Shown here: piece by piece, positions 18,496 to 35,242 of the stretch | Layout: each line of letters begins with the position of its first letter | How positions within the stretch are numbered: the stretch's first letter is position 1 | Origin: Gammaproteobacteria bacterium | Lineage (GTDB): Bacteria; Pseudomonadota; Gammaproteobacteria; SZUA-229 | DNA: 64,000 bases | Reading direction: 5' to 3' | NCBI GenBank assembly: GCA_015488885.1 | Contig: WFMW01000031.1 | Coordinates: 5,566 to 69,565 of the forward strand | Program-made: the position numbers and the translations under genes | Notes under the pieces: model-generated | Databases searched by the model: none | What the model was told of the DNA's origin: nothing | Seen by the model: the letters and a program-made list of their open reading frames with translations, nothing else

Positions 18496-18789
18496 AATTT
18501 TAATATTGCGTGTACCGTTGTAAAGCATTCCCATTTTGCCAAACCTCTAAAATGTGTTATTTTTCAGCCAGAATGACAAGAATTAACAGAAAATATGGAA
18601 AAGATTGAATTATTTTATGCACCATAGTTGTGCAATAAGAGCGTAGTTAATTGATTTATATGGGTTTGATGCTTTAAACCCTGATTGCTGATTCTGCTTA
18701 TAAATTGGATAAATTATGCGTAGCTCATTAAAATTAGCCTCCTATGACAGTAGCTGTCGCAAAGCGAGGCAAAGACATTGGCAAGCGTA

Positions 18790-21700
18790 ATGAATCCAGT
18801 AGAAAAATATACATTTCCAGAACGTCGCTCAGTAGATAAACGCCAGGTTGTATTACAGAATATCTGTTTACAGCTAGCCTCGATGGGACATAAATGTCAG
18901 CTCAGTATGAAGCATGGCTATCTCACCGTTGCTGACAGCCTGTTAAAGAACTATTCAGCGCGGCGCCAGCTACTGGCAGAATATCGCAGCCCGGTCGATC
19001 AGCGCATACAGGATTTTCTGAATGATTATCTGCGGCGTAATGGTATTGAACAGGCCATAAAATTACCTGGCGAAACATTTAGTCTTAATGAGGCTGGACT
19101 GGCTCGTGAACTTTCTTTGCCCTATCAGGGTAATCATTATAAATCTGAACTGGTAGAGTCTTACCGGCTGATACAGGGAGTATTGCATAATCCGAAAAAT
19201 GATCGTCGCACCACCTCAGGCGTCTTTCATATTGTTGAGGGCGGGTTGCCAATACCGGCCGATAAAAAAGCGGTACCGGTTGATGTTTATGCCAACCTGC
19301 TTCAGGTTGCTTTAGACCCACCTACCGAATTAATGAGTCTGCCAATAACCAGTGAACTGGAAAAACCGGTAGACATGTGGGTGTCTTTGTTGTTACGTCC
19401 CATTGTACGGCCTGAAATCGAAGCAGTTCTACCGGAAAAAAGTCTGGAAGTACGAATGTTTGCTCCTGGCGGACTGGTATCGAACCTGGATTTTGCAGAA
19501 TCTATTTTTGGTAATGGTGGTGATCCCTTCCTAAGCGAAAATGATGCCGCGCTTGATATCGATCACTGGACCGGGCATAGTGGTTGCATTATTCTGGCAC
19601 CACACTTAACCCTGCTAACAAAAAAAGCGCTGGGCCTGCCTCACCATGATGATGCCAGCGAACGCCAGCGTAGCGAAGGTATGTGCTGGCAACAGGAGGA
19701 TGAACTGTATAACGATGGCCTGGCATTTAAGATTGTGTGCAGGGATATGAACGGTGTTATTGTTACCATTATTGCCGATAACTATTTTGGCTATACAAAA
19801 AAGGAAATTAAATCCCAGATCAGTTATTCAGCTAACCTGTTTGGTGGCGTTGAGGAAGAGCATGCTGGCGGTGCAATTGCCTTCCCACGTTTTAATCTGG
19901 GTATTTATTATAAGCCTAAAATTGAAGATGAGATGAGTGATCATACTTTCAAGCGTTTATGTAAACAGCTTGAAGGCGGCATAGAAATAAAACCCGAGGG
20001 TTATGCGGTTGACCGTCGCTATCCCGATATTATCTATATTCCCGAAGATGCGCATATTGATATGCAGCAACAAACGGTTAGCTGGAGACATAAAGGTGAA
20101 AAAGCCGTCATCAAACTGATGGTCAAACACACCTATATTTACCCTAGTGGTTTTAAAGTGAATATGCTGAAACACCCACAGGCACCAAGCTGGCGGCTGA
20201 TTGGTATTCTTGGTGAAGGCACACATTGCCATAAACCCAGCACAGTTTCTGGCGGGGGTAAATCAGAAATTTCAAAATCCATTCAGGATTCCATGATTTC
20301 TGGCCCGATCTATGTGGGCGATTTTGAAAAAAACCTGAATCAGGTTGAAGCCATTTTTAATTATGATTATTCGAATCGACGGCGGATAAAATCCACCAAT
20401 GACAACCGTGGAGTACTGGATAATAACCGCAGCCTGGGTTCAGTTATACGTCTGTTGACACCTTCTGCCGAAACCTATACCGATGAATATAACCAATGGC
20501 TGGAGCAAATCCCGCAACATATTCTTGCGCTGGTGTACTTAATTAAACGCTTTTACAAACCTTCATGGGGGAAAAACTGGCGCAGGTATTTTTCGGTGGA
20601 TGAAGTTAATGGCCACCCCGGGCACGAACTTAAATATTGTGGCCGTAAACTGGTAACCAGTTATCTGCGTGTTGGTATTCGCGATGACGGTACCTGGCGG
20701 ATCTATAAATTAAGGCAGGACTTTGTTGCCGCAACCAAAATTCAGACCGAGGACGACATTACTGCATCCACGGTTATTCCAGTGAACTATGTGAAGGGGA
20801 AATTAAACAACCATTACTTCAATCCCAGTGTAAAAATAGTCAAGAATTGCGAAAAACGGCTATTTCAGCGACCGGATGAAGCTATTAATCGTGGTCTGGA
20901 CACACAAACAGAACACGACCTTGCTGAAGACAATAATTTTATCTCCAACTTTGAACCCTTTACCCCTGAAGATGCCCGTGATTTAATTGATGATGCCATT
21001 AATTTTCAGAATTATTCAGCACCGATGCAGGCTTTAATTTGCCGTGCAGCGGAGAGTGACAGTGATACTTATTTTGTATCCTCTGCCCATCCCCGTATGG
21101 TAGATGGTAAACCCAGTAAGAATGTACGCTATTTACAGAAACGCCCGGATCTGGTTGACCCCAAAAGTGAATATCTGGCAAAAATAGGGGCTCGACTATC
21201 GCGGGGTCTGTCATTGAATGACCCGGTTTATTTTCCAGTTAACGCAGTGTTACAGGGACGACGTAATAACCCGGGAGATAAGGCCGCCGGGATTCGACCA
21301 CTGGCCGTTTATAATCCGATACATTATCAGGAATTGCCGGAATTATTCATGGACTTAATCTGTAGTTTAACCGGCAAGTCACCATCGACAACGGGTGCCG
21401 GCTCTGAAGGCGCTTTAACCAAAGGCCCGTTTAATGCCCTGTCTACAACTGCCGATTTAAACAATGCGCTGGTGTCATTTATTTTATGTGGTTACGATGG
21501 CTTTTCTTCAGCGGCAGGCTATATCGGTTCACGGCGCCGGGTTGACCACGATATTAGCATGTTAATTCCCGAAATATGGTGCCGTCTGCCTGTTGAACAG
21601 CGAGATCCAGCGTTTCTTATTAAACATGGGCATCTGGAAAAAATGGAAGATTTTGAACATCAGGGCAAAACGGTCTATGCCAGCCGCCTGGGTTATCGAA

Positions 21701-22248
21701 TCACCGAAAAATTTGTCCATGCTTTTTTTGGTAAGGTTTTTGATAGCCCTACCATTGTGTTTGATGAGGAAATGTTACGCCCGGAAATCCAGGATATGGA
21801 TGCTTTTATTGATGGCATTAATAATATCAGCGAGGCTCAGCAAAAAGTTGCCTGCCGTTATATCAATGATGGCTCCATCAATGATGCCTGCCCGCCATTA
21901 AAAGCACTATTATATATTATGGCAGAAGGAAACTATCAGGGAAAAACTATAGATAACCCGGCCATTCGATCCCTGTTCACGCGTGATTACCTGTTAGCCA
22001 GTGACTGGTACATAGAGCGCCTGCAGATTAAACGTCAACGTGATGCTGCGCTGTGGAAAATGAATCGTGACTATATTGAACGTAAAATGGATGAAATTAG
22101 TGAATCTGAAACGGAATTATGGGCAGATCTACAGGGCCGTATTGAAAATGCTGAACAGATGTTAGCCTGGGTAAACAGTGACAGTTATCTGGAGCGACTG
22201 CATGGTACGCTGGGTGCTGACTGGATTCATCGTGAGGATGGATTTTAA
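18790..22248 (+). CDS. Large (1,152-aa) soluble protein of unassigned family. Possibly a PPi-type PEP carboxykinase-class enzyme (hypothesis based on length and context only).
   Basis: Single uninterrupted 3.46-kb ORF, with an ATG at 18790 (the track start at 18778 is TTG). No TM segment, Walker A, Cys cluster or HExxH motif. It occupies the slot usually held by glmS. Confidence 0.6.
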   Translation: MNPVEKYTFPERRSVDKRQVVLQNICLQLASMGHKCQLSMKHGYLTVADSLLKNYSARRQLLAEYRSPVDQRIQDFLNDYLRRNGIEQAIKLPGETFSLNEAGLARELSLPYQGNHYKSELVESYRLIQGVLHNPKNDRRTTSGVFHIVEGGLPIPADKKAVPVDVYANLLQVALDPPTELMSLPITSELEKPVDMWVSLLLRPIVRPEIEAVLPEKSLEVRMFAPGGLVSNLDFAESIFGNGGDPFLSENDAALDIDHWTGHSGCIILAPHLTLLTKKALGLPHHDDASERQRSEGMCWQQEDELYNDGLAFKIVCRDMNGVIVTIIADNYFGYTKKEIKSQISYSANLFGGVEEEHAGGAIAFPRFNLGIYYKPKIEDEMSDHTFKRLCKQLEGGIEIKPEGYAVDRRYPDIIYIPEDAHIDMQQQTVSWRHKGEKAVIKLMVKHTYIYPSGFKVNMLKHPQAPSWRLIGILGEGTHCHKPSTVSGGGKSEISKSIQDSMISGPIYVGDFEKNLNQVEAIFNYDYSNRRRIKSTNDNRGVLDNNRSLGSVIRLLTPSAETYTDEYNQWLEQIPQHILALVYLIKRFYKPSWGKNWRRYFSVDEVNGHPGHELKYCGRKLVTSYLRVGIRDDGTWRIYKLRQDFVAATKIQTEDDITASTVIPVNYVKGKLNNHYFNPSVKIVKNCEKRLFQRPDEAINRGLDTQTEHDLAEDNNFISNFEPFTPEDARDLIDDAINFQNYSAPMQALICRAAESDSDTYFVSSAHPRMVDGKPSKNVRYLQKRPDLVDPKSEYLAKIGARLSRGLSLNDPVYFPVNAVLQGRRNNPGDKAAGIRPLAVYNPIHYQELPELFMDLICSLTGKSPSTTGAGSEGALTKGPFNALSTTADLNNALVSFILCGYDGFSSAAGYIGSRRRVDHDISMLIPEIWCRLPVEQRDPAFLIKHGHLEKMEDFEHQGKTVYASRLGYRITEKFVHAFFGKVFDSPTIVFDEEMLRPEIQDMDAFIDGINNISEAQQKVACRYINDGSINDACPPLKALLYIMAEGNYQGKTIDNPAIRSLFTRDYLLASDWYIERLQIKRQRDAALWKMNRDYIERKMDEISESETELWADLQGRIENAEQMLAWVNSDSYLERLHGTLGADWIHREDGF

Positions 22249-22257
22249 AATTATGAT

Positions 22258-23079
22258 ATGAGTATATTTAACTGGCTTAAGCAACAGCTGTTAAAAAAAA
22301 CATCACATCGTTATACCCTTCCAGAACCACTATGGCAGCAGGCACTGAATAAGGCAGTGTTGCTACAGACATTAACGGATGATGAGCAGTTACGCCTGTC
22401 ACATCTATGTGCACACTTTATCAGCAAAAAGAAATTTACCGGCGTTGACGGGCTGCATGTTAGCGATGAAATGAAAGTGCTGATTGCCGCCCAGGCCTGT
22501 CTATTAATACTTGAGCTGGATTTTTCTTATTTCGATGGCTGGGTGGAAGTTGTGGTTTATCCGGCGGCTTTTTATGTAGAGCATGATGTTAGAGACGCAG
22601 CAGGCGTGGTCAGCAGGCAGGTACAGTTATTAAGCGGTGAGGCATGGTCACGTGGCCAGGTGATTCTGTCATGGCAGGACGTATTACATGATACGCTTGA
22701 ACTCCATGTCGGCCATCAACTGGTATTGCACGAATTTGCTCATAAGCTGGATGCACGTTCCGGCGATACTAATGGTATGCCTCCATTGCATAAAGACATG
22801 AGCAGAGAGCAATGGGCACAGGTATTAAGCCATGCTTACAATCATCTGCTTAAACAGCTTGAGCACCATCATCACGGTTATATTAATGCCTATGCGGCAA
22901 CCAATCCGGCTGAATATTTTGCAGTGTTAACCGAATATTTCTTTACTGCCCCGGCGATTTTAAAACACCACTGTGAACATGTTTATCACCAGCTGGTAAA
23001 ATTTTACCGACAGAACCCCCAGCACAGAGCGTTACCGCATCTGGATAACACCCAGTCATCCCTGAAAAAACATCCATGA
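22258..23079 (+). CDS. mtfA: MtfA (Mlc titration factor A) / peptidase M90 family zinc aminopeptidase
   Basis: HEFAHKLD zinc motif, plus YAATNPAEYFAVLTEYFFTAP, which is near-identical to the E. coli MtfA C-terminal region. 9-bp gap after the large ORF. Confidence 0.8.
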   Translation: MSIFNWLKQQLLKKTSHRYTLPEPLWQQALNKAVLLQTLTDDEQLRLSHLCAHFISKKKFTGVDGLHVSDEMKVLIAAQACLLILELDFSYFDGWVEVVVYPAAFYVEHDVRDAAGVVSRQVQLLSGEAWSRGQVILSWQDVLHDTLELHVGHQLVLHEFAHKLDARSGDTNGMPPLHKDMSREQWAQVLSHAYNHLLKQLEHHHHGYINAYAATNPAEYFAVLTEYFFTAPAILKHHCEHVYHQLVKFYRQNPQHRALPHLDNTQSSLKKHP

Positions 23080-23089
23080 AATAGCCGGG

Positions 23090-23413
23090 TTAAGCTGCAC
23101 TACCAAATGATTTATCAATAGCACCTGCAGGTACATTCAAACCGGCAAGCTTACAACCTTGAGCCACCGGGCCACCAGGTATTATTTGATACAGGTATTT
23201 CATTCCACCCAGATGATGAAATTTTTCATCCAGTGCATCCTTAATCTGGCGCAAGTGCGGGAATTCCACTTTTTTATAATATTCCTGTAGTGCCTGGATT
23301 AAAGCAAGATGATGATCTGTTAATTCAATGCCTAGTTCAGTAGCAACGAGTTTTGCATCATCAGGACTCCAGTCTGTCGGTGCATTGGGATACGATTGCA
23401 TTTTCATATTCAT
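23090..23413 (-). CDS. TusE/DsrC-family sulfur relay protein homologue lacking the terminal (penultimate) cysteine
   Basis: ELTDHHLALIQALQEYY and KYLYQIIPGGPVAQGCKLAGL align with the DsrC/TusE helix and C-terminal arm. CysB is present. The GLPKPTGCV terminus is replaced by GLNVPAGAIDKSFGSAA. Confidence 0.75.
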   Translation of the reverse strand: MNMKMQSYPNAPTDWSPDDAKLVATELGIELTDHHLALIQALQEYYKKVEFPHLRQIKDALDEKFHHLGGMKYLYQIIPGGPVAQGCKLAGLNVPAGAIDKSFGSAA

Positions 23414-23630
23414 CTTTGATTACTCCTCTCATTAATAAACAAAGTTTGTAAGAAAAAATATTATTGATTCATGCCTCTTACTAAGGTTGTGATATGCTCT
23501 GTATATATTAGTTCCCCTGATAGCATTAAATTCAATAGGCCATAGAAAACATATACCACAAGATATTGATTTTTATACCAGAAGCCTGTCCGAGATGCAT
23601 TGGCGTTGTAAGCAAGGGTTATATAAATTT

Positions 23631-23697
23631 ATTAACATTAATGTCTATTAACACTAAATATTAACAATAAAATTAACAGAAAAATTAATAATAACAA
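23631..23697. repeat. Five phased ATTAA(C/T)A direct repeats, 12-16 bp apart, in the divergent dsrC-like / pyk promoter region
   Basis: Copies of ATTAACA at 23631, 23647, 23660 and 23672, and ATTAATA at 23684. They lie 20-90 bp upstream of the pyk start. Confidence 0.4.
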
Positions 23698-23717
23698 AGA
23701 TACACAGGCAGGCAGGA

Positions 23718-25205
23718 ATGACAAATAACAGCAGGGGCAATAAAAGTAGAAAAAACCCGGCTTTACACTGGCGAAGAACAAAAATACTAGCCACTCTGGG
23801 CCCCGCATCTGATACAGATAAAATGATTCATGCATTAATACAGGCAGGAGTTAATGTGTTTCGCCTGAATATGTCGCATGGTGACCATGCTTCCCATCAG
23901 CAGTTATTTATGCGTATCCGAGAACTTGCCAGACAACAGAATGCACAGGTTGCCATACTGGTAGATCTGTGTGGGCCTAAAATACGTGTGGGTCGATTTG
24001 TACACGGTGAGCTTACATTAAAACAACATTCATCTGTTGTTATTCGCTGTAGTAACCGCCCCGGTGAGAATAATATTATTCCATCACAGTATAAAAATTT
24101 ATATAAAGATGTGAAACCGGATGAGCGCATTCTGCTTGATGACGGTAATATTGAATTAAAGGTGGTAGCAGTAAAAGATAAAGATGTGATATGCAGGGTT
24201 ATTTATGGTGGGCAGTTAAAAGACCATAAAGGCATAAACCTGCCCGATTCCAGAGTCTCTGTTTCCAGTTTTACCCCTGGGGATAAACGTGATGCGAAGC
24301 TGGCGATAAAACTGGGTGCCGACTTTGTTGCATTAAGTTTTGTGCGGACTGAAAAAGATGTGCTGACATTAAAAAATTATATGAAACGTAATGGTGCCAG
24401 CATTCCAGTTATCGCAAAAATTGAAAAACCTGAAGCCGTTGACAATATCGAGGCAATCATAAAAGTTTCCTACGGTATTATGATTGCTCGTGGTGATCTG
24501 GGTATTGAATTACCAGCAGAAAAAGTTCCACTAATACAGAATAAATTAATTGCGCTAGCACGTATCCGGCATCGTCCGGTAATTGTCGCCACTCAGATGA
24601 TGGAGTCGATGATAAGTCATGCCCGACCGACACGGGCAGAAGTCAATGATGTCGCTAATGCGGCACTATCGGGGGCAGATGCAGTGATGTTGTCGGCAGA
24701 AACCGCCGTGGGGAAATACCCTGTCAGGACAGTAAAAACCATGGATACTATATTGCGTGAAGTTGAAATTAACCAATGGTTAAATAATCGGTTTGAAGAC
24801 GATGTAAAAGATAATCTTAGTTATGAAAAGCAGACAGCAAGCCAGCCCTCCACACGAAAAGCGATTGCTCATGCTGCCTGTATGTTAGCTGATGAACTAA
24901 AGCTGGAGGGAATTCTAGTGCCAACCAGATCCGGGATGACGGCGAATATTATTTCATCTGTTCGCCCATTAGCACCTTTGCTTGGCCTGTCATCAAGCCT
25001 GCAAACCTGTCGAAAACTGGCCTTGCACTGGGGTGTCGTACCACTTAGTATTAATGAAGTTGAGGCAAGAGACTGGCAGATTATGGTGAATACGGTATGT
25101 AAACAGTGTAAGCTGGCAAAAGCTGGCAGCCAGGTTTTACTGGTATCAGGTATTAATGATGACCCGGTTAAAAACAGGCCGGTATTAAAGATTATGACGG
25201 TATAA
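23718..25205 (+). CDS. pyk: Pyruvate kinase (PykA-like)
   Basis: RRTKILATLGPAS, NMSHG, MIARGDLGIE and MLSAETAVGKYP motifs. 495 aa. Confidence 0.9.
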   Translation: MTNNSRGNKSRKNPALHWRRTKILATLGPASDTDKMIHALIQAGVNVFRLNMSHGDHASHQQLFMRIRELARQQNAQVAILVDLCGPKIRVGRFVHGELTLKQHSSVVIRCSNRPGENNIIPSQYKNLYKDVKPDERILLDDGNIELKVVAVKDKDVICRVIYGGQLKDHKGINLPDSRVSVSSFTPGDKRDAKLAIKLGADFVALSFVRTEKDVLTLKNYMKRNGASIPVIAKIEKPEAVDNIEAIIKVSYGIMIARGDLGIELPAEKVPLIQNKLIALARIRHRPVIVATQMMESMISHARPTRAEVNDVANAALSGADAVMLSAETAVGKYPVRTVKTMDTILREVEINQWLNNRFEDDVKDNLSYEKQTASQPSTRKAIAHAACMLADELKLEGILVPTRSGMTANIISSVRPLAPLLGLSSSLQTCRKLALHWGVVPLSINEVEARDWQIMVNTVCKQCKLAKAGSQVLLVSGINDDPVKNRPVLKIMTV

Positions 25206-25837
25206 TGATGCATTCACAACGACAGTTAAGCCGAATATTTTTCCTGTGTGGCAGATGGTTTGCTATCACTTTATTTTCTGGCGTATTCTTCTCTATCACC
25301 TTGTTTTCCATTCGTGGTTTTGCAAACACGGTAAAAATACATAAAAACCCCGCCACGGGATTATTAACCTGGGCGGTTGAAGATAAGGGCTTCAGCCTTG
25401 AGCTTATTCAGCTTAACCCCGACTTTGTCCGCGCTGTTTATGAAAAACATGGCCTACCACAGGCAGAGGTTGAACGCATTGCGGGTTATTGTGTTTTTGG
25501 CTCTATCTTAAGAAATACCTCAGCAAAATATACCATGTATTATCGGGTGGCAAACTGGCGTTATCGAACTAAAAAGGGCAATGAATATCCGGTGAAAACG
25601 AAAACCCAGTGGTTGCACGAATGGAAAAAAGTCGGCGTGCCGTTTTCATGGACATTACTACCCGATGCGGGTGATTTTAATGTCGGGGACTGGCAACAGG
25701 GGTTTACTACGATAAAATTACCCAGAAATACGCGGTTTGATTTTATCTATAAATGGCAGATGGACGGTAAGCATTATCGCGGTACTATAAAAAACATGCG
25801 CTGCGCACCAGCGCGGCTGATGGGGGATAAAAAATAA
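25205..25837 (+). CDS. Hypothetical exported or membrane-anchored protein (Trp-rich, 210 aa)
   Basis: N-terminal hydrophobic segment. The start overlaps the pyk stop (TAATG), and its own stop overlaps the next start (ATGA). Confidence 0.45.
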   Translation: MMHSQRQLSRIFFLCGRWFAITLFSGVFFSITLFSIRGFANTVKIHKNPATGLLTWAVEDKGFSLELIQLNPDFVRAVYEKHGLPQAEVERIAGYCVFGSILRNTSAKYTMYYRVANWRYRTKKGNEYPVKTKTQWLHEWKKVGVPFSWTLLPDAGDFNVGDWQQGFTTIKLPRNTRFDFIYKWQMDGKHYRGTIKNMRCAPARLMGDKK

Positions 25838-26385
25838 TGATAAAACAGTGGGTAAAATTGAAAAGCCTGGCAACGACGGCTCTTATTTTGACTAGTTTTT
25901 CCTTACATGCCAGCTGGTTGCAGCCACCTTTAAGCCATACGCTGACAGCGGTTAAAACACCCTTTATGGCAAAAGATTTTTCGCTACCAGATGTAGATGA
26001 AGAAATGGTTAAGTTTTCTGCTTACCGGGGAAAAGTTATTTTAATCAATTTCTGGGCGACCTGGTGCCCACCCTGTGTGCGTGAAATGCCTTCAATGGAA
26101 CGTTTATACCGGCAATTAAAAAAAGATAAGTTTGTGGTAATAGCGATTGATCAGATGGAAGATGAGGATCAGGTATTTGCTTTTACCGGCCAGCTATCTA
26201 TTGAGCCAACCTTTACCCTGTTGCTGGATAAAAACAGTAAAGTAGCAAACAGTTACGGGGTCAAAGGTTTACCCACAACCTTTATTATTGATAAAAAAGG
26301 CAGGGTACGTTACCGGGCCATTGGCGGGCGCGAACTTGACCATGCTCAGATAAAAAAAATCATTAAGCAGTTAATTGCAGAATAA
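25837..26385 (+). CDS. TlpA/ResA-like periplasmic thiol:disulfide oxidoreductase
   Basis: Signal peptide. WATWCPPC thioredoxin-fold CxxC motif. 182 aa. Confidence 0.8.
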   Translation: MIKQWVKLKSLATTALILTSFSLHASWLQPPLSHTLTAVKTPFMAKDFSLPDVDEEMVKFSAYRGKVILINFWATWCPPCVREMPSMERLYRQLKKDKFVVIAIDQMEDEDQVFAFTGQLSIEPTFTLLLDKNSKVANSYGVKGLPTTFIIDKKGRVRYRAIGGRELDHAQIKKIIKQLIAE

Positions 26386-29125: not shown

Positions 29126-31729
29126 TCAATATTCCAGTAACTCACGAACTCGGGTAAGTAGCCTCTGTGATGTGTAAGGTTTGTCGATGATGTGTTTTTG
29201 CAAAGTCTTATCAGCCGTCGGGTTATGGCGTTCATCAGCAAAACCGCTGACCAGCTGAATGCGTATCTGTGGATAAATGCGTTTAACTTCTGCGGCGAGT
29301 TGATAGCCATCCATTTGAGGCATAATAAGGTCAGTAATAATCAGGTCTACTTTTTCCTTTTCGAGAAGCTGCAATGCCTGTAAGCCATTATGAGCAGTAA
29401 AAACCCGATAACCATATTCGGTCAGAATATTGGCAGTGAGTGAAACAATCGCCTGCTCATCATCTACAACCAGTATGCTTTCTGTTCCATGCAGATCCTT
29501 TCCCAGGCCATCGATGTCATCTTCTGCCTTACTGATGGTTTGCTGGCTGCGTGGGAAATACAGGGCAAATTGTGTGCCCTGCCCCGGTTCAGAAAAAACC
29601 TGTATCTGCCCACCGCTACGCTGGATAAAACCATAAACCTGGCTTAAACCCAGACCCGAACCACGCTTACCTTTGGTGGTATAAAAAGGGTCAAAAATTT
29701 GTTCACGGGTTTTTTCATCCATCCCACAGCCGGTATCGGTAATGGTGAGCAGAACATAATCTCCCGGGTTCATATTATATTGCCTGGTATCTGCCACAGT
29801 AAGCGGCCGGTTGCAAGTGTGAATGGTAAGCTGTCCGTTACCTTCCATCGCATGCATGGCATTAATACATAAATTGAGAATGGCATCTTCAAAATCACTG
29901 TCATCAATACAAACGGCCCATAATTGTGGCGCAAGATTAAAATTTAGTTTAATCCTTGCAGTCAGTGTTTTTTCGAGAACCTGCTGTTGCTCCTGTATCA
30001 GCGTATTAAGATTGAACAGAGCTACCTGACCACCTTCCTGCCGGGTAAAAGACAGTAGTTTACGGGTTAGTTTTCCACCACGTTGGGCAGCGTGGTAAAT
30101 CTGGTGTGCATAACGGGCAAGGATGGGCTGATCGTCGAGTTGCCTTTCCAGTAATTCAGCGTAACCCAGAACAATACCAAGCATATTATTGTAATCATGG
30201 GCAACGCCACCGGTGAGCTGGCCAAGAGCTTCCATTTTCTGGCTGCGACGCAAGGTTTCTTCCTGTTTTTTTCGTTCGGTAATGTCGGTGGCAATACAGC
30301 AGATGGCATAAATTTTATTATTAACATCCAGCAGTGGAAATTTAACAGAAAGAAAATCATGTAATTGATTATGGATTGCTATCTGCTCTTCCCTTTCCAG
30401 GGTATCACCACCAGTCAGTATCTGCTGTTCAAGCTGAGCCTGTTTTTGCGCAAAATCTGCCGGGAAAATATCAAAATCTGTTTTGCCGGGAAGGTCATCC
30501 TGTTGCTGAAATAACTGCTTGAAGGTCTGGTTGGCAAAAAGATAGTGGCCCTGAGTATCCTTGGCATAAATAACCGCAGGGGAATGATCCATAATAGCCT
30601 GTAAGTTACGCTTGCTGCGAGCGGTTGATTCGCGTAGCTGATATTGTTCAGTGACATTATTAAACACCAGCACCATACCAAGAATATCGCCATTTCGATC
30701 CCGGATGGGTGACGCGGAGTCAGCAATCTGGTATTCGGTTTTATCCCGGGCAATCAGGGTGGTATGGTTACTGAGGTAAATAACTTCACCTGTGGCCAGA
30801 ACCTTATCCACCGGGTTATCGATGGGCAGTCGAGTACTGGCATCAATGATGCTAAAAATAGACTTTAATGGCTGGTCTCGGGTTTCCTCGGTTTGCCAGC
30901 CGGTTAACTGTTCAGCAACGCTATTCATGTACAGCAGGTTACCGTTCCTGTCGGTTACAATGACGGCATCAGCAATCGACTCCAGCGTTACCTGATGAAA
31001 TTCCTTTTCCTTAAACAACTGATTATAACTACCCGACAGACGCTGCATCAGATCGCTGAAATTGCGTGCCAGCAGGCCGACTTCATCACTGCGCTCGAGT
31101 AATTGCGGGGAAAGCACAGGAAGATAATCCTCGGTCTGCCGCATAACCGATGCCAGTTTTTCAATCGGTGTCAGCGCACGGCGAAGGATAATGGCGGTGG
31201 CAATAGAGAGCAATATTAGAGTAATGAGCAAGCTGGCCATTAAACGCAGGGTTATAGGTGTGGAATAAATGATGGAAGAGTCGAGATAATAGGCAAGATG
31301 AGCATTGGCTACATGCCTGTTACCCAGATAGGCAGGGTAAACCACTTCCCGAACCGGGCGGCCACGGTAGTTGGCATTTCGTAGTAGCGGTTTTTTCAAC
31401 TTACCCAGCGGGATCGTTCTGGTCGCTACCGCAGCGGGGTTGGTATCAGCAATAATCAACCCGTTGCTACGATTTATATAGGCATAAGCAAAACCATCAT
31501 CCAGAACCGACACCTGTAGGAGCCGATCCAGCTGCTCATAATCTTTTGCTGCCAGTGCGTCGAGGCTGCTTTCAGCCAGATTTCTGGTGAGTGTCCGTGC
31601 CTGCTGTAAACGGAATGCTGCGGCTGTATTTTGTGCATCATCAATCAGTAAAAAAGCCATCACACTGGCGCTGATAATAAATAGCAATAATAGACTAAAC
31701 AGTATCCGGTAAAAAAGTGCCGATTTCAT
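29126..31729 (-). CDS. Hybrid sensor histidine kinase / response regulator (TM-periplasmic sensor-TM-HAMP-2xPAS-HisKA-HATPase-REC)
   Basis: H-box GGVAHDYNNML. G-boxes DTGCGMD and GSGLGLS. C-terminal REC with VVDDE...DLIITDLIMP. Confidence 0.9.
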   Translation of the reverse strand: MKSALFYRILFSLLLLFIISASVMAFLLIDDAQNTAAAFRLQQARTLTRNLAESSLDALAAKDYEQLDRLLQVSVLDDGFAYAYINRSNGLIIADTNPAAVATRTIPLGKLKKPLLRNANYRGRPVREVVYPAYLGNRHVANAHLAYYLDSSIIYSTPITLRLMASLLITLILLSIATAIILRRALTPIEKLASVMRQTEDYLPVLSPQLLERSDEVGLLARNFSDLMQRLSGSYNQLFKEKEFHQVTLESIADAVIVTDRNGNLLYMNSVAEQLTGWQTEETRDQPLKSIFSIIDASTRLPIDNPVDKVLATGEVIYLSNHTTLIARDKTEYQIADSASPIRDRNGDILGMVLVFNNVTEQYQLRESTARSKRNLQAIMDHSPAVIYAKDTQGHYLFANQTFKQLFQQQDDLPGKTDFDIFPADFAQKQAQLEQQILTGGDTLEREEQIAIHNQLHDFLSVKFPLLDVNNKIYAICCIATDITERKKQEETLRRSQKMEALGQLTGGVAHDYNNMLGIVLGYAELLERQLDDQPILARYAHQIYHAAQRGGKLTRKLLSFTRQEGGQVALFNLNTLIQEQQQVLEKTLTARIKLNFNLAPQLWAVCIDDSDFEDAILNLCINAMHAMEGNGQLTIHTCNRPLTVADTRQYNMNPGDYVLLTITDTGCGMDEKTREQIFDPFYTTKGKRGSGLGLSQVYGFIQRSGGQIQVFSEPGQGTQFALYFPRSQQTISKAEDDIDGLGKDLHGTESILVVDDEQAIVSLTANILTEYGYRVFTAHNGLQALQLLEKEKVDLIITDLIMPQMDGYQLAAEVKRIYPQIRIQLVSGFADERHNPTADKTLQKHIIDKPYTSQRLLTRVRELLEY

Positions 31730-31744
31730 GACTATATGTTTGGT

Positions 31745-32641
31745 CTATAATTGCCCGGTGGCAATCAGTTTTTTAATTATGCTATTCATTTTTTTACTAT
31801 CATAGCGTACAAATGACTGAATTTTCATACTATGCATGTTAGCAAGTACCTGCCTGCCCGTCGGATTTTTCTCCATGATAAGCAACTGGTGCCGAAACTG
31901 TTTAATCTGCTGTGGCGGCAAATTGAGGCGTGCTGCAATAAGACTTTCAGGGTATTCAGGGCTATTACCAATGATTTTTAAATCGCCGGTTTTAATCTTC
32001 TGACTCATTAACTTGAAATTAACCCCGCACATGGTACCGGCATCATAGTCACCGAGTAATACGCCATGAATGGAATTAGTCAGGTTTCGGGTAAATTCAG
32101 GCTTAAAATCTCGATCGCTTTTCAACCCGGCAGCATACAGGTAGGCGCGTGGTGCCATATACCCACCTGCGCCCAGAGGGCTGACAAAAGCGATGGATTT
32201 TCCGTTCAGATCGCCAATGCTCTGTATATGACTGTTTTTGCGTACAAAGATTTCACTGTGGCTGGTAGTGTTACCCGCTATATTTCTTATTTGTGCAACG
32301 GCAAGTGCCTGATGCGTCTGTAACAGACGGTAAAACACGTATGAATTAATATAAAAAAAATCAACCTTACCCTGTAAAATGGCCTGCTTCATTTTGCTAA
32401 AACCATGGGGAACAACCAGCTCAACCGGTCGGCCAAGCTGTTTCTGCATATAATCAGCAAATGGTTGCCATTTGGCATACAGGCGTGCAGGTGGTGCGAT
32501 GGATAATATGCCTAAGTGAATCACCTCAGGTTTTGCGGCCAGACTCGGTGGCAAGCTCAGGTAGCAGAAAAATAAAATCACCAGGCGGGGCAGTGCGGGA
32601 AAGTTTAAAACCTTACCTCGATGGTTAAATAAATGCATCAT
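31745..32641 (-). CDS. PhnD/SsuA-like periplasmic substrate-binding protein, likely the sensing partner of the downstream hybrid kinase
   Basis: Signal peptide. Phosphonate-binding-protein-like fold motifs (GILSIAPPARLY, FFYINSYVFYRL). 15-bp gap to the kinase gene. Confidence 0.7.
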   Translation of the reverse strand: MMHLFNHRGKVLNFPALPRLVILFFCYLSLPPSLAAKPEVIHLGILSIAPPARLYAKWQPFADYMQKQLGRPVELVVPHGFSKMKQAILQGKVDFFYINSYVFYRLLQTHQALAVAQIRNIAGNTTSHSEIFVRKNSHIQSIGDLNGKSIAFVSPLGAGGYMAPRAYLYAAGLKSDRDFKPEFTRNLTNSIHGVLLGDYDAGTMCGVNFKLMSQKIKTGDLKIIGNSPEYPESLIAARLNLPPQQIKQFRHQLLIMEKNPTGRQVLANMHSMKIQSFVRYDSKKMNSIIKKLIATGQL

Positions 32642-32736: not shown

Positions 32737-33651
32737 TCACACATATTTCATTTCTTTCTTACGGTACAGGGTTGAAACCGAGCCGACTATTTTAGGGTCG
32801 GGCTTGCAAGCAATTATCGGGTCTTTTTCCGGGTAGTCCATGCTGTATAAAAAATGGCGTATACAGTTGATGCGGGCACGTTTTTTATCATCGGATTTTA
32901 CGACAGTCCAGGGGGCATCAGCCGTATCAGTATGAAAAAACATGGTCTTGCGGGCATCGGTATAATCATCCCACTTATCCAGCGACTGCAGGTCAATCGG
33001 GCTGAGTTTCCAGTGTTTTAGCGGGTCGTGACTGCGGGAATGGAAACGGCGTATCTGCTCATGGCGGCTCACTGAGAACCAGTATTTGCGTAATACCAGA
33101 TTAGAGTTGACCAGCATTCTTTCCAGTTGTGGGGTGGTACGCAGAAATTCCAGATGCTCTTCAGGGGTGCAGAATCCCATCACTCTTTCAACGCCAGCAC
33201 GGTTGTACCAGGAGCGGTCAAAAAACACCATTTCACCACGTGTGGGCAGGTGGTGTATATAACGTTGAAAATACCATTGCCCCAGTTCCCGGTTATTGGG
33301 TTTTTCCAGCGCAATAATGTGTGCGGCACGAGGGTTAAGGTGTTCCATAAAACGTTTAATCGTACCACCTTTGCCGGCCGCATCACGACCTTCAAAAATG
33401 CCAACTATCTTTATACCCTGTTCTTTAACCCAGTTCTGCAATTTCAGTAGTTCAGTCTGTAGCAACTGTTTTTCATGTTCGTATTCTTTCGTACCAATCT
33501 TTTTCGGGTAGGGATAATTACCCAGTTCGTAATTGATCTTTAATAAATCTTTACCGGAGATAATATCAGGTGAAGACAGAACTTTTTCAGGGTGAGTCAG
33601 ATCTTCAAGTATCTGTTTCATTTCCTGTTTGTGCTTATCACTATGTGGCAT
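32737..33651 (-). CDS. ppk2: Polyphosphate kinase 2 (single-domain PPK2)
   Basis: Walker A FEGRDAAGKGG and Walker B MVFFDRSWY. Lid motif. 304 aa. Confidence 0.9.
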   Translation of the reverse strand: MPHSDKHKQEMKQILEDLTHPEKVLSSPDIISGKDLLKINYELGNYPYPKKIGTKEYEHEKQLLQTELLKLQNWVKEQGIKIVGIFEGRDAAGKGGTIKRFMEHLNPRAAHIIALEKPNNRELGQWYFQRYIHHLPTRGEMVFFDRSWYNRAGVERVMGFCTPEEHLEFLRTTPQLERMLVNSNLVLRKYWFSVSRHEQIRRFHSRSHDPLKHWKLSPIDLQSLDKWDDYTDARKTMFFHTDTADAPWTVVKSDDKKRARINCIRHFLYSMDYPEKDPIIACKPDPKIVGSVSTLYRKKEMKYV

Positions 33652-33736: not shown

Positions 33737-35242
33737 CTATTCAAATTTAAGGTGGTAACCCGCTTTAGCCAGGTAATCTATTTCCTTGTTTAAATCTGCA
33801 AGCGTCAGGCTATTGGCAGCCAGCCAGCCAACGGGGAACAACAGCTGAATCTGTTTCTTATTAACGCTAATCTCCGGGTCAGGCGTACTGTTATCGGTAC
33901 GCCCACGGTGCATTAAAACGGCCAGACGCAATAAAATGCACAGGCGTTTTCCCGGTTTAACAAACGGTTGCATGAGTGGGTTAAACTCATCACTATGAAA
34001 TTTGGCGCGATGGTTCTGTACCACGATCGCCAGCAGCGCCTGTTCCTGACGGGAAAAACCCTGCATATCCGCATTACCAAGAATATAGGCGCCATGTCGA
34101 TGGTATTGTGAGTGAGAGACCAACAGGCCGATTTCATGCAGTTGAGCCGCCCATTTGATGACTTGTTCAAAGGGTTCATCATCAATTTTCCATGCTTCAC
34201 TGGTCTGCTGGTAAAGCTTTTCAACAGTGTTGGCAACCCGTACCGACTGCTTTTCATCCACCCCCCAGCGTTTAATAAGTGATTCGACGGTGGCATCACG
34301 TACGTCCTGATGATTGATCCGACCGACCAGATCATAGAGCAGACCCTCACGCATACTTTGGTCAGAAACCTGCATGTGCTCAATGTTCAGGGTATTAAAT
34401 ACAGCCATTAATACAGATACCCCCCCGGCAATAACCGGACGGCGGCTTTCAGACAGACCTTTCAGCTCAAGCTTATCTTCATGCCCGGCTTTAATGAGGG
34501 CTTTTTGTAGTGGATGCAGAGCGTCGCGTTCAATACCGTTTTTACACCAGCCCTCGGCGTGTAATATATTACGAATCGCTCGAATAGTACCGGAACAGCC
34601 TATCGCTTCATTCCAGTTACCAGCCTGAAATTTTCCTGCCTGAGGTAGCAGGGTGAGTGCTGCATCAATTTGTGCCGCCTGAATGCGCGCTTTAGTAATC
34701 TGACCACCTGAAAAAAATTTTTTACTGGCACTGACACAACCGGTGTAAAGACTTTCACGGTGTAACGGATGCATGCCCTCACCGATAATGCACTCAGTGC
34801 TGCCTCCGCCAATATCAATCACCAGGCGTCTGCCCTGACCGGTAGCCAGGCCATGTGCCACACCCAGATATATCAGCCGTGCCTCTTCTCGTCCAGCAAT
34901 GATTTCAACAGGATGTTGCAGAATTTTTTCAGCCTGACAAACAAACTCAGCGGCGTTACGTGCTACCCGTAAGGTATTGGTTCCAGCAATTCGTACCGCA
35001 GAATCGGGTAAATCACGCACCCGTTGCGAGAAGGTTTCCAGGCAGGCAAAAGCCCGTTGCTGTGCAGCCGGTTTTAATTTACCTTTTTTACTCAGACCAC
35101 CACCAAGGCGAACACTTTCACGTATGCGGTCAATAATAGATAGAGTACCGCTTTCTTCCAGCCGGGCAACAATCATATGAAAGCTATTAGAACCAAGGTC
35201 AATGGCCGCAACAATATCAGGATGAGGGTCGGATATTTTCAA
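33737..35242 (-). CDS. ppx: Exopolyphosphatase / guanosine pentaphosphate phosphohydrolase
   Basis: Ppx/GppA N-terminal actin-like ATPase motifs (AAIDLGSNSFHMIV, DIGGGSTE). 501 aa. Confidence 0.9.
   Translation of the reverse strand: MKISDPHPDIVAAIDLGSNSFHMIVARLEESGTLSIIDRIRESVRLGGGLSKKGKLKPAAQQRAFACLETFSQRVRDLPDSAVRIAGTNTLRVARNAAEFVCQAEKILQHPVEIIAGREEARLIYLGVAHGLATGQGRRLVIDIGGGSTECIIGEGMHPLHRESLYTGCVSASKKFFSGGQITKARIQAAQIDAALTLLPQAGKFQAGNWNEAIGCSGTIRAIRNILHAEGWCKNGIERDALHPLQKALIKAGHEDKLELKGLSESRRPVIAGGVSVLMAVFNTLNIEHMQVSDQSMREGLLYDLVGRINHQDVRDATVESLIKRWGVDEKQSVRVANTVEKLYQQTSEAWKIDDEPFEQVIKWAAQLHEIGLLVSHSQYHRHGAYILGNADMQGFSRQEQALLAIVVQNHRAKFHSDEFNPLMQPFVKPGKRLCILLRLAVLMHRGRTDNSTPDPEISVNKKQIQLLFPVGWLAANSLTLADLNKEIDYLAKAGYHLKFE

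Follow-up and report, generated by a model that had tools for sequence, protein, structure and literature searches.

Locus and genomic context

The window analyzed here (the whole stretch of DNA, 64 kb) carries on its minus strand, at positions 23090..23413 with the stop codon included, a gene for a DsrC-like protein of 107 amino acids, which was taken from the ORF list with its ATG start and matches PF04358 and TIGR03342. Sequence inspection placed a Shine-Dalgarno-like element, GAGAGGAG, at 23423..23430 on the same strand, 9 nt 5' of the ATG. Pyruvate kinase (23718..25205, plus strand) is encoded divergently from the DsrC-like gene, and two plus-strand genes are convergent with the latter, one for a PPi-type PEPCK (18778..22248) and one for an MtfA-like M90 peptidase (22258..23079). 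The ORF boundaries leave a divergent intergenic region of 23414..23717 between the DsrC-like and pyruvate kinase genes, presumably the place of the DsrC-like gene's own promoter. A scan for the sigma-70 consensus gave sites not above shuffled sequence, so no promoter was assigned there, and all results of the promoter and terminator scan stayed within the shuffled background. The Rfam scan of the window returned zero hits. None of the annotated ORFs of the 64-kb window is a dsr, sox, apr or tus gene, and neither tusBCD nor mnmA is among them. An earlier sequence-only reading of this DNA had placed the gene divergent from pyruvate kinase and outside any dsr/tus cluster, and the ORF annotation agrees with that placement; the check for adjacent tusBCD, run on the same annotation, found none. 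The rest of the window is of housekeeping character, with gidB-parAB-atp operon-glmU, a SulP permease, polyphosphate enzymes, a TRAP transporter, methionine salvage, uvrD, ubiquinone biosynthesis, hslUV, xerC, and dapF.

Several features of the surrounding DNA were recorded in their own right. The PPi-dependent PEPCK (18778-22248, plus strand) has 1156 aa, a PF26300 PEPCK_PPi_lobe_2 match and TTG as its listed start. In ~23 related loci, it keeps its place with glmU and the atp operon; this synteny and the position next to pyruvate kinase suggest an unusual PPi-linked PEP/oxaloacetate node in the window's lineage. The MtfA-like Peptidase_M90 gene (22258-23079, plus strand) is inserted between the PEPCK and DsrC-like genes, convergent with the latter and with stops 10 bp apart, and this insertion is limited to the window's organism and two related loci (L006/L007). 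Pyruvate kinase, a 210-aa protein without a Pfam match (25205..25837) and a TlpA/redoxin-like protein (25837..26385) are encoded with start/stop overlaps in an operon-like unit (23718-26385, plus strand), of which the latter two genes stay paired in 27-32 related loci. Genes for PPK2 (32737..33651) and Ppx/GppA (33737..35242), both on the minus strand, adjoin those for a phosphonate-binding protein and a PAS-HisKA-receiver hybrid kinase (29126..32641). This group and the PPi-PEPCK make for a phosphate/polyP-rich neighborhood. Four exact copies of TGTTAAT occur on the minus strand within 48 bp (23631-23678; starts at 23631, 23647, 23660, and 23672), 40-87 bp 5' of the pyruvate kinase ATG and ~220-265 bp 5' of the DsrC-like gene. 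The array could be a putative regulator-binding array; it is not kept in related loci, and the heptamer is found 30 times in the whole 64 kb against 16.4 expected.

For the neighborhood analysis, ORFs were clustered from 87 non-redundant loci and recurrent neighbors were annotated. At least five unrelated synteny arrangements exist among these loci, and three loci of the wider clade and the Allochromatium locus differ again. The arrangement of the window's lineage is atp operon-glmU-PPi-PEPCK / DsrC-like / pyruvate kinase; in other lineages, the gene comes after ccmI/cycH, an AMMECR1-Memo-radical-SAM trio, a class-IV aminotransferase or ppk1-SNase, or lies beside a CBS protein. No neighbor or operon partner is shared across the 87 loci, the three wider-clade loci, and the Allochromatium locus. 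The DsrC-like gene is stand-alone and monocistronic, without a conserved operon partner. As the neighbors are not shared, the context yields no functional lead, and guilt by association was dropped for want of a partner common to the lineages. A link to polyphosphate or PPi through the nearby PPi-PEPCK, Ppx, and PPK1/2 was likewise rejected as lineage-level synteny, not independent recurrence. Two ORFs of 186 and 164 aa (clusters 10 and 16) are frequent upstream of the gene in related loci and absent from the window; they had no Pfam or NCBIfam match above curated cut-offs. In the gammaproteobacterial ccmI/cycH lineage (L033, L037, L052, L057, and L061, and also L027 and L034), the DsrC-like gene stands directly 3' of ccmI/cycH on the same strand, with nap genes (NapF/G-like ferredoxin, NapD) downstream in most of the loci and a Pyr_redox_2 flavoprotein (cluster 24) in several.

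Family assignment and C-terminal architecture

The protein belongs to the DsrC/TusE/DsvC superfamily, as the sequence-only reading had recognized, and passes both curated cut-offs: Pfam DsrC (PF04358) with 67 bits (E 2.3e-18; gathering score 24.9) and NCBIfam TIGR03342 'TusE/DsrC/DsvC family' with 62.9 bits (cut-off 53.5). Its closest solved structure by sequence is Allochromatium vinosum DsrC (PDB 1YX3, E 4.4e-14). To fix the register of the C-terminal arm, A. vinosum DsrC (1YX3) and Escherichia coli TusE (WP_000904442.1, locus L094) served as references in HMMER and MAFFT alignments, the MAFFT set being the window protein with DsrC, TusE, and six relatives; both programs gave the same register. 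In the HMMER alignment, query residues 7-99 reach the last residue of 1YX3 with a gapless arm (query segment GGPVAQGCKLAGLNVPAGAI). Residues 91-99 (codons 23117..23143, minus strand) are the retained arm, reading GLNVPAGAI against GLPKPTGCV in DsrC and GLPKPVKCI in TusE. Cys87 (codon 23153..23155, minus strand), the sole cysteine of the protein, pairs with the first Cys of the C-X10-C of DsrC, i.e., CysB, where E. coli TusE has Thr, and Ala98 (codon 23120..23122, minus strand) stands exactly X10 after CysB, at the CysA position. Residues 100-107, DKSFGSAA (23093..23116, minus strand), run past the C-terminus of both references and have no equivalent in either in the MAFFT alignment.

That CysB is kept and CysA lost had been read from the letters beforehand, and both points stand in the alignments. 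The same reading had described the end of the protein as a 9-residue replacement tail; what we found is an alignable arm with a Cys to Ala change, plus an 8-residue extension. It had also called the penultimate Cys universally conserved, which does not agree with the numerous CysA-less members that have been described before. DsrC sensu stricto has CysB-X10-CysA with a penultimate CysA, while the window protein has Ala98 followed by nine further residues. The catalytic penultimate Cys of TusE (...KCI) is not present either, Ala98 being aligned there. The DiSCo criterion for DsrC is AGLPKPTG(not N)CA with no more than one mismatch (PMC8477390), and the corresponding AGLNVPAGAI has at least four. 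Elsewhere in the protein, residue 68 (codon 23210-23212) is Leu (FHHLGGM) in the window protein and in its 99%-identical relative P0001, whereas among the nearest homologues in the list, the majority (P0002-P0008, P0011) carry a second cysteine there, in the motif FHHCGGM; just 9 of the 118 subfamily members have two Cys.

These results bear directly on whether the gene encodes a working TusE that relays sulfur for tRNA 2-thiouridine synthesis, as the JGI name 'tRNA 2-thiouridine synthesizing protein E' for many homologues would imply. The Cys equivalent to CysA is the catalytic residue of TusE, and the window protein has Ala in its place. The NCBIfam TusE equivalog NF008562 gave only 43.7 bits, far below its cut-off of 191, the nearest solved relative by sequence is a DsrC of the oxidative type, and the annotated window ORFs include neither tusBCD nor mnmA. 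Genes for tRNA-U34 modification do occur in loose proximity to some homologues (cmoA/cmoB in L074, L085, and L093; selU in L089). This amounts to 4 of 87 loci, non-adjacent in each, and a link to tRNA modification was rejected on that ground. A TusE function is very improbable.

Predicted structure

An AlphaFold2 model built from a 150-sequence alignment had a mean pLDDT of 83, with 86-93 in the core and less than 50 for residues 100-107, and a shallower alignment led to the same fold at lower confidence. All significant Foldseek matches in the PDB were DsrC-family structures, namely 1YX3 (TM 0.67) and 7SYB (TM 0.68). The model predicts a helical body folded like that of DsrC and, again as in DsrC, a C-terminal arm that is flexible. 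It puts Cys87 into or beside its last helix (H84-90), at the arm's base and not at the tip.

Authenticity of the C-terminus and selection on it

The missing ...PxGC-x terminus that is expected of the family is the sole point in favor of an artefact or pseudogene, i.e., a canonical dsrC/tusE in which a frameshift or sequencing error has spoiled the 3' end. The check for a frame that would restore a PxGCx end, already suggested with the sequence-only reading, was run and found none: the other two coding-strand frames across the 3' end contain no GLPKPxGC-like end. The identical protein is encoded on contigs of three independent sources (Logan SRR10310285, NCBI GCA_027047795.1, and ENA ERZ23496721). 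A search of 5.8 billion proteins returned 1,276 homologues, and the 120 of them that were listed are 66-99% identical to the window protein, nearly all 106-108 aa long, and all end in the tail ...P[AS]G[AVT][IV]D[KRP]SFGS.A. The codons lead to the same result. Across 67 orthologous genes drawn from genome loci, Cys87, Asp100, Ser102, Phe103, Gly104, and Ser105 are invariant, while 45-73% of gene pairs differ synonymously at these six residues; at Cys87, both Cys codons are used, with a synonymous difference in 51% of gene pairs. The tail codons as a whole show many synonymous and almost zero non-synonymous differences. Invariant residues combined with synonymous codon changes mean that the translated tail, over its whole length, is under strong purifying selection. 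The homologue tails, the identity across three sources, the frame test, and the codon test together refute the artefact or pseudogene reading, to which we give practically no probability.

A clade defined by the C-terminal extension

An exhaustive phmmer search yielded 325 hits among 1.84 billion representatives of clusters at 50% identity. Among the best 150 of these, 129 were alignable, and with the window protein and A. vinosum DsrC they formed an alignment of 131 rows. Taking F/Y-G at positions 103-104 as the mark of the extension type, 100 of the 131 rows (window protein included) were assigned to it; six were canonical, with CysA and without the extension, and the remaining 25 were truncated or frameshifted predictions. 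The extension follows the motif D-x-[S/G]-F-G-[S/T]-x-x, with Gly104 in 99/99, Phe103 in 89/99, and Asp100 in 82/99 of the extension-type representatives, Ser/Gly at position 102 in 90/99, and Ser/Thr at position 105 in 76/99. The cysteines are far more variable. CysB is Cys in just 57 of the 99 representatives, and the CysA position is occupied by A (39), S (26), T (13), C (8), or V (7). By cysteine class, the 100 extension-type rows comprise 50 CysB-only proteins (window protein included), 42 without Cys at either position, and eight with both. In a neighbor-joining tree computed from core columns only, with the tail excluded, the canonical sequences fell into one small cluster. What marks the clade is the extension and not its cysteines, and the view that a CysB-only variant is exceptional has to be given up, as half of the extension-type rows are of this kind.

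The eight both-Cys proteins of the extension type (examples are P0131, P0168, P0234, and P0262) have an internal CysA instead of a penultimate one and are possibly either intermediates in evolution or a subtype with redox activity. Single multi-domain relatives also appeared among the phmmer hits (P0123, P0151, P0121, and P0145), with the architectures CBS plus DsrC-like (324 aa), Fer2 plus FAD_binding_6 plus a DsrC-like part that ends in the extension tail (672 aa), five DsrC domains in tandem (541 aa), and phage tail-tube domain plus DsrC-like (212 aa). Their use as Rosetta stones was dropped, because they are single cases and possibly gene-calling artefacts. The tail motif was not found on other window proteins; in related loci, two chance matches occurred on unrelated proteins.

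The cysteine classes also bear on a carrier function moved from CysA to CysB, in which Cys87 would hold sulfur or redox equivalents, e.g., as a persulfide or as a mixed disulfide with a partner. Cys87 is the only cysteine of the protein and is invariant in the 67 orthologs, where both codons are used, and a single-cysteine DsrC has a precedent in Desulfurella amilsii, as quoted in PMC8477390. However, that published protein, as quoted there, keeps AGLPKPTG..C, a motif which the window protein does not have, and the model would put Cys87 at the arm base, in or near helix H84-90, instead of at the tip. More importantly, 42 of the 100 extension-type entries contain neither cysteine and nevertheless keep the tail motif, so the function common to the clade needs no Cys. 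We therefore hold a CysB-based carrier to be unlikely.

Distribution and coexistence with canonical DsrC

A scan of one genome per GTDB species yielded 118 confirmed loci, of which 80 were kept. Most of them belong to uncultured Gammaproteobacteria, among them Thiotrichaceae, Arenicellales, Poriferihabitaceae, and Chromatiaceae; the closest are from Thiotrichaceae (72-77% identity), and the Solemya velum gill symbiont (L074), Thiocapsa, and Allochromatium humboldtianum are also represented. A profile search of the wider clade added Burkholderiales and Rhodocyclaceae. Phage and plasmid collections gave only canonical, enterobacterial tusE-like matches. Members of the clade are found in sulfur-oxidizing Gamma- and Betaproteobacteria, including A. 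vinosum, whose ortholog is ADC61680.1 / WP_012969956.1, and the S. velum symbiont, both of which contain dsrAB (PMC3368242, PMC4287430). Besides dsrC, A. vinosum has four more TusE/DsrC/DsvC genes of unknown role, i.e., Alvin_0028, _0345, _0732, and _1508 (PMC3368242), of which the ortholog is presumably one. In the S. velum symbiont, a full dsr operon is accompanied by multiple dsrC homologues at other places that do not have the two conserved cysteines (PMC4287430). A protein of this type, called RspA type below, coexists with canonical DsrC at least in these two organisms.

Discussion

In DsrC, CysA forms a trisulfide or disulfide with CysB that is handled by DsrAB and DsrMK, and the arm that carries CysA inserts into DsrAB. 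CysA is also the residue persulfurated by DsrEFH (PMC3397948). Alanine at this position means no persulfide uptake from DsrEFH or TusBCD and no trisulfide or disulfide between CysA and CysB. Judged by this established chemistry of DsrC and TusE, the window protein should be incapable of CysA-dependent persulfide or trisulfide reactions. The earlier statement that it is no canonical persulfide carrier is upheld by Ala98 at the CysA position, and the same conclusion was drawn for such proteins in PMC9371685 and PMC8477390. DsrC homologues without CysA have been named RspA, regulatory sulfur-related proteins, with function unknown, in the part of PMC9371685 that cites Venceslau et al. 2014. The regulatory or decoy role put forward in the sequence-only reading is a hypothesis.

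The gene product is an intact DsrC-fold protein of the CysA-less, RspA-type branch and of the extension clade. We consider it probable that this protein is functional and non-catalytic and that it binds a partner through its conserved flexible C-terminal peptide, a mechanism that we infer from the pattern of conservation. The strongest constraint falls on a peptide predicted to be disordered, as is typical of short linear docking motifs, and this favors a partner-binding role. The peptide would then be a short docking motif, entering a partner protein in a way similar to that of the DsrC arm in DsrAB, and the protein could serve as a regulator, adaptor, or competitor in the cytoplasmic sulfur metabolism of sulfur-oxidizing proteobacteria. 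Cys87 may be an optional redox- or persulfide-sensitive switch in the close subfamily, dispensable in the wider clade. Such a docking role agrees in spirit with the label 'regulatory sulfur-related protein', as that label is quoted in later papers.

Taken literally, the RspA hypothesis means a DNA-binding transcription regulator that uses the helix-turn-helix-like part of the DsrC fold. It was proposed in the literature for CysA-less DsrC homologues, according to the quotation of Venceslau et al. 2014 in PMC9371685, and a stand-alone gene is compatible with a trans-acting role. However, the window protein has a pI of 6.2 and the subfamily a median of 5.3; such acidic values do not favor direct DNA binding and make 'regulatory' in the sense of a transcription factor doubtful. 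Moreover, the most conserved element is the disordered C-terminal peptide instead of a helix surface, and no target operon is conserved next to the gene. Direct control of transcription is quite unlikely in our view, and docking of the C-terminal peptide to a protein partner remains the preferred reading.

A more far-reaching version of it is that the D-x-S-F-G-S extension defines a separate functional class of DsrC-fold proteins, with the arm re-purposed as a plug or pseudosubstrate or modified on Ser102/Ser105, which is speculative and, in our estimate, rather improbable. As a plug, the peptide would sit in the channel by which DsrAB, DsrK, or DsrEFH binds DsrC and would control the flux of sulfur oxidation in this way; alternatively, a modification of the invariant Ser102 or Ser105 would replace the cysteine persulfide. 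Either mechanism would be new in principle to the regulation of dissimilatory sulfur metabolism and would explain why sulfur oxidizers keep several 'dead' dsrC paralogs.

In JGI/IMG, many CysA-less proteins are named 'tRNA 2-thiouridine synthesizing protein E', and a single NCBI record bears the title 'Sulfurtransferase TusE [Rhodocyclaceae bacterium]'. Since the catalytic Cys is absent, these names are likely a systematic over-annotation. Thousands of CysA-less proteins are labelled TusE by public pipelines, and when metabolism is inferred from metagenomes, counts of dsrC or tusE should leave them out. Sulfur-oxidizing Gamma- and Betaproteobacteria keep a highly conserved DsrC-fold paralog that is most constrained in its disordered C-terminal peptide, and identifying its partner would supply a missing piece in current views of how sulfur is trafficked in the cytoplasm and how this is regulated. 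The value of the present analysis may lie in the definition of the clade by its conserved 8-residue extension, not by cysteines, and in the misnaming as TusE by pipelines.

Comparison with known systems

The window protein shares the fold of A. vinosum DsrC (1YX3; TM 0.67, 38% identity over 86 columns), the position of CysB, with GPVAQGC against GPAKQAC in DsrC, and an arm of equal length up to the residue after CysA. DsrC has a penultimate CysA and then ends, whereas the window protein has Ala98 and a further eight residues beyond the end of the arm; the DsrC gene is part of the dsr operon, and the window gene is not. E. coli TusE is of the same family (31% identity) and can be aligned end to end over query residues 6-99, but it is opposite in its cysteines, having CysA and no CysB (Thr), whereas the window protein has CysB only. 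TusE stops at the equivalent of residue 99, and the window protein runs on to 107.

Much closer are the orthologs in A. vinosum (ADC61680.1, 53% identical to the window protein) and in the S. velum symbiont (KHF24926.1, 62% identical). Both are CysB-only and end in the same tail, ...GA[AV]DKSFGS.., and they have 5-20 more residues at the N-terminus than the window protein; the A. humboldtianum ortholog, which is in the same 90% cluster as that of A. vinosum, matches the window protein at 55%. Their neighbors differ: the Allochromatium gene has ppk1-SNase on its upstream side, and the symbiont gene has trmD-rplS and a membrane protein there. Two DsrC-like proteins of Methylovirgula thiovorans HY1, MHY1_00075 and MHY1_00097, likewise have no CysA and are considered non-carriers for that reason (PMC9371685). 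The family name RspA is also used in the quoted part of PMC8477390. As a DsrC-family protein that does not have CysA, the window protein fits the RspA group as later papers quote its definition, and it is neither DsrC proper nor TusE by the tests applied above. A group of RspA type has been recognized before, and the copy in the window is an ordinary ortholog, one of thousands, with qualitatively nothing new.
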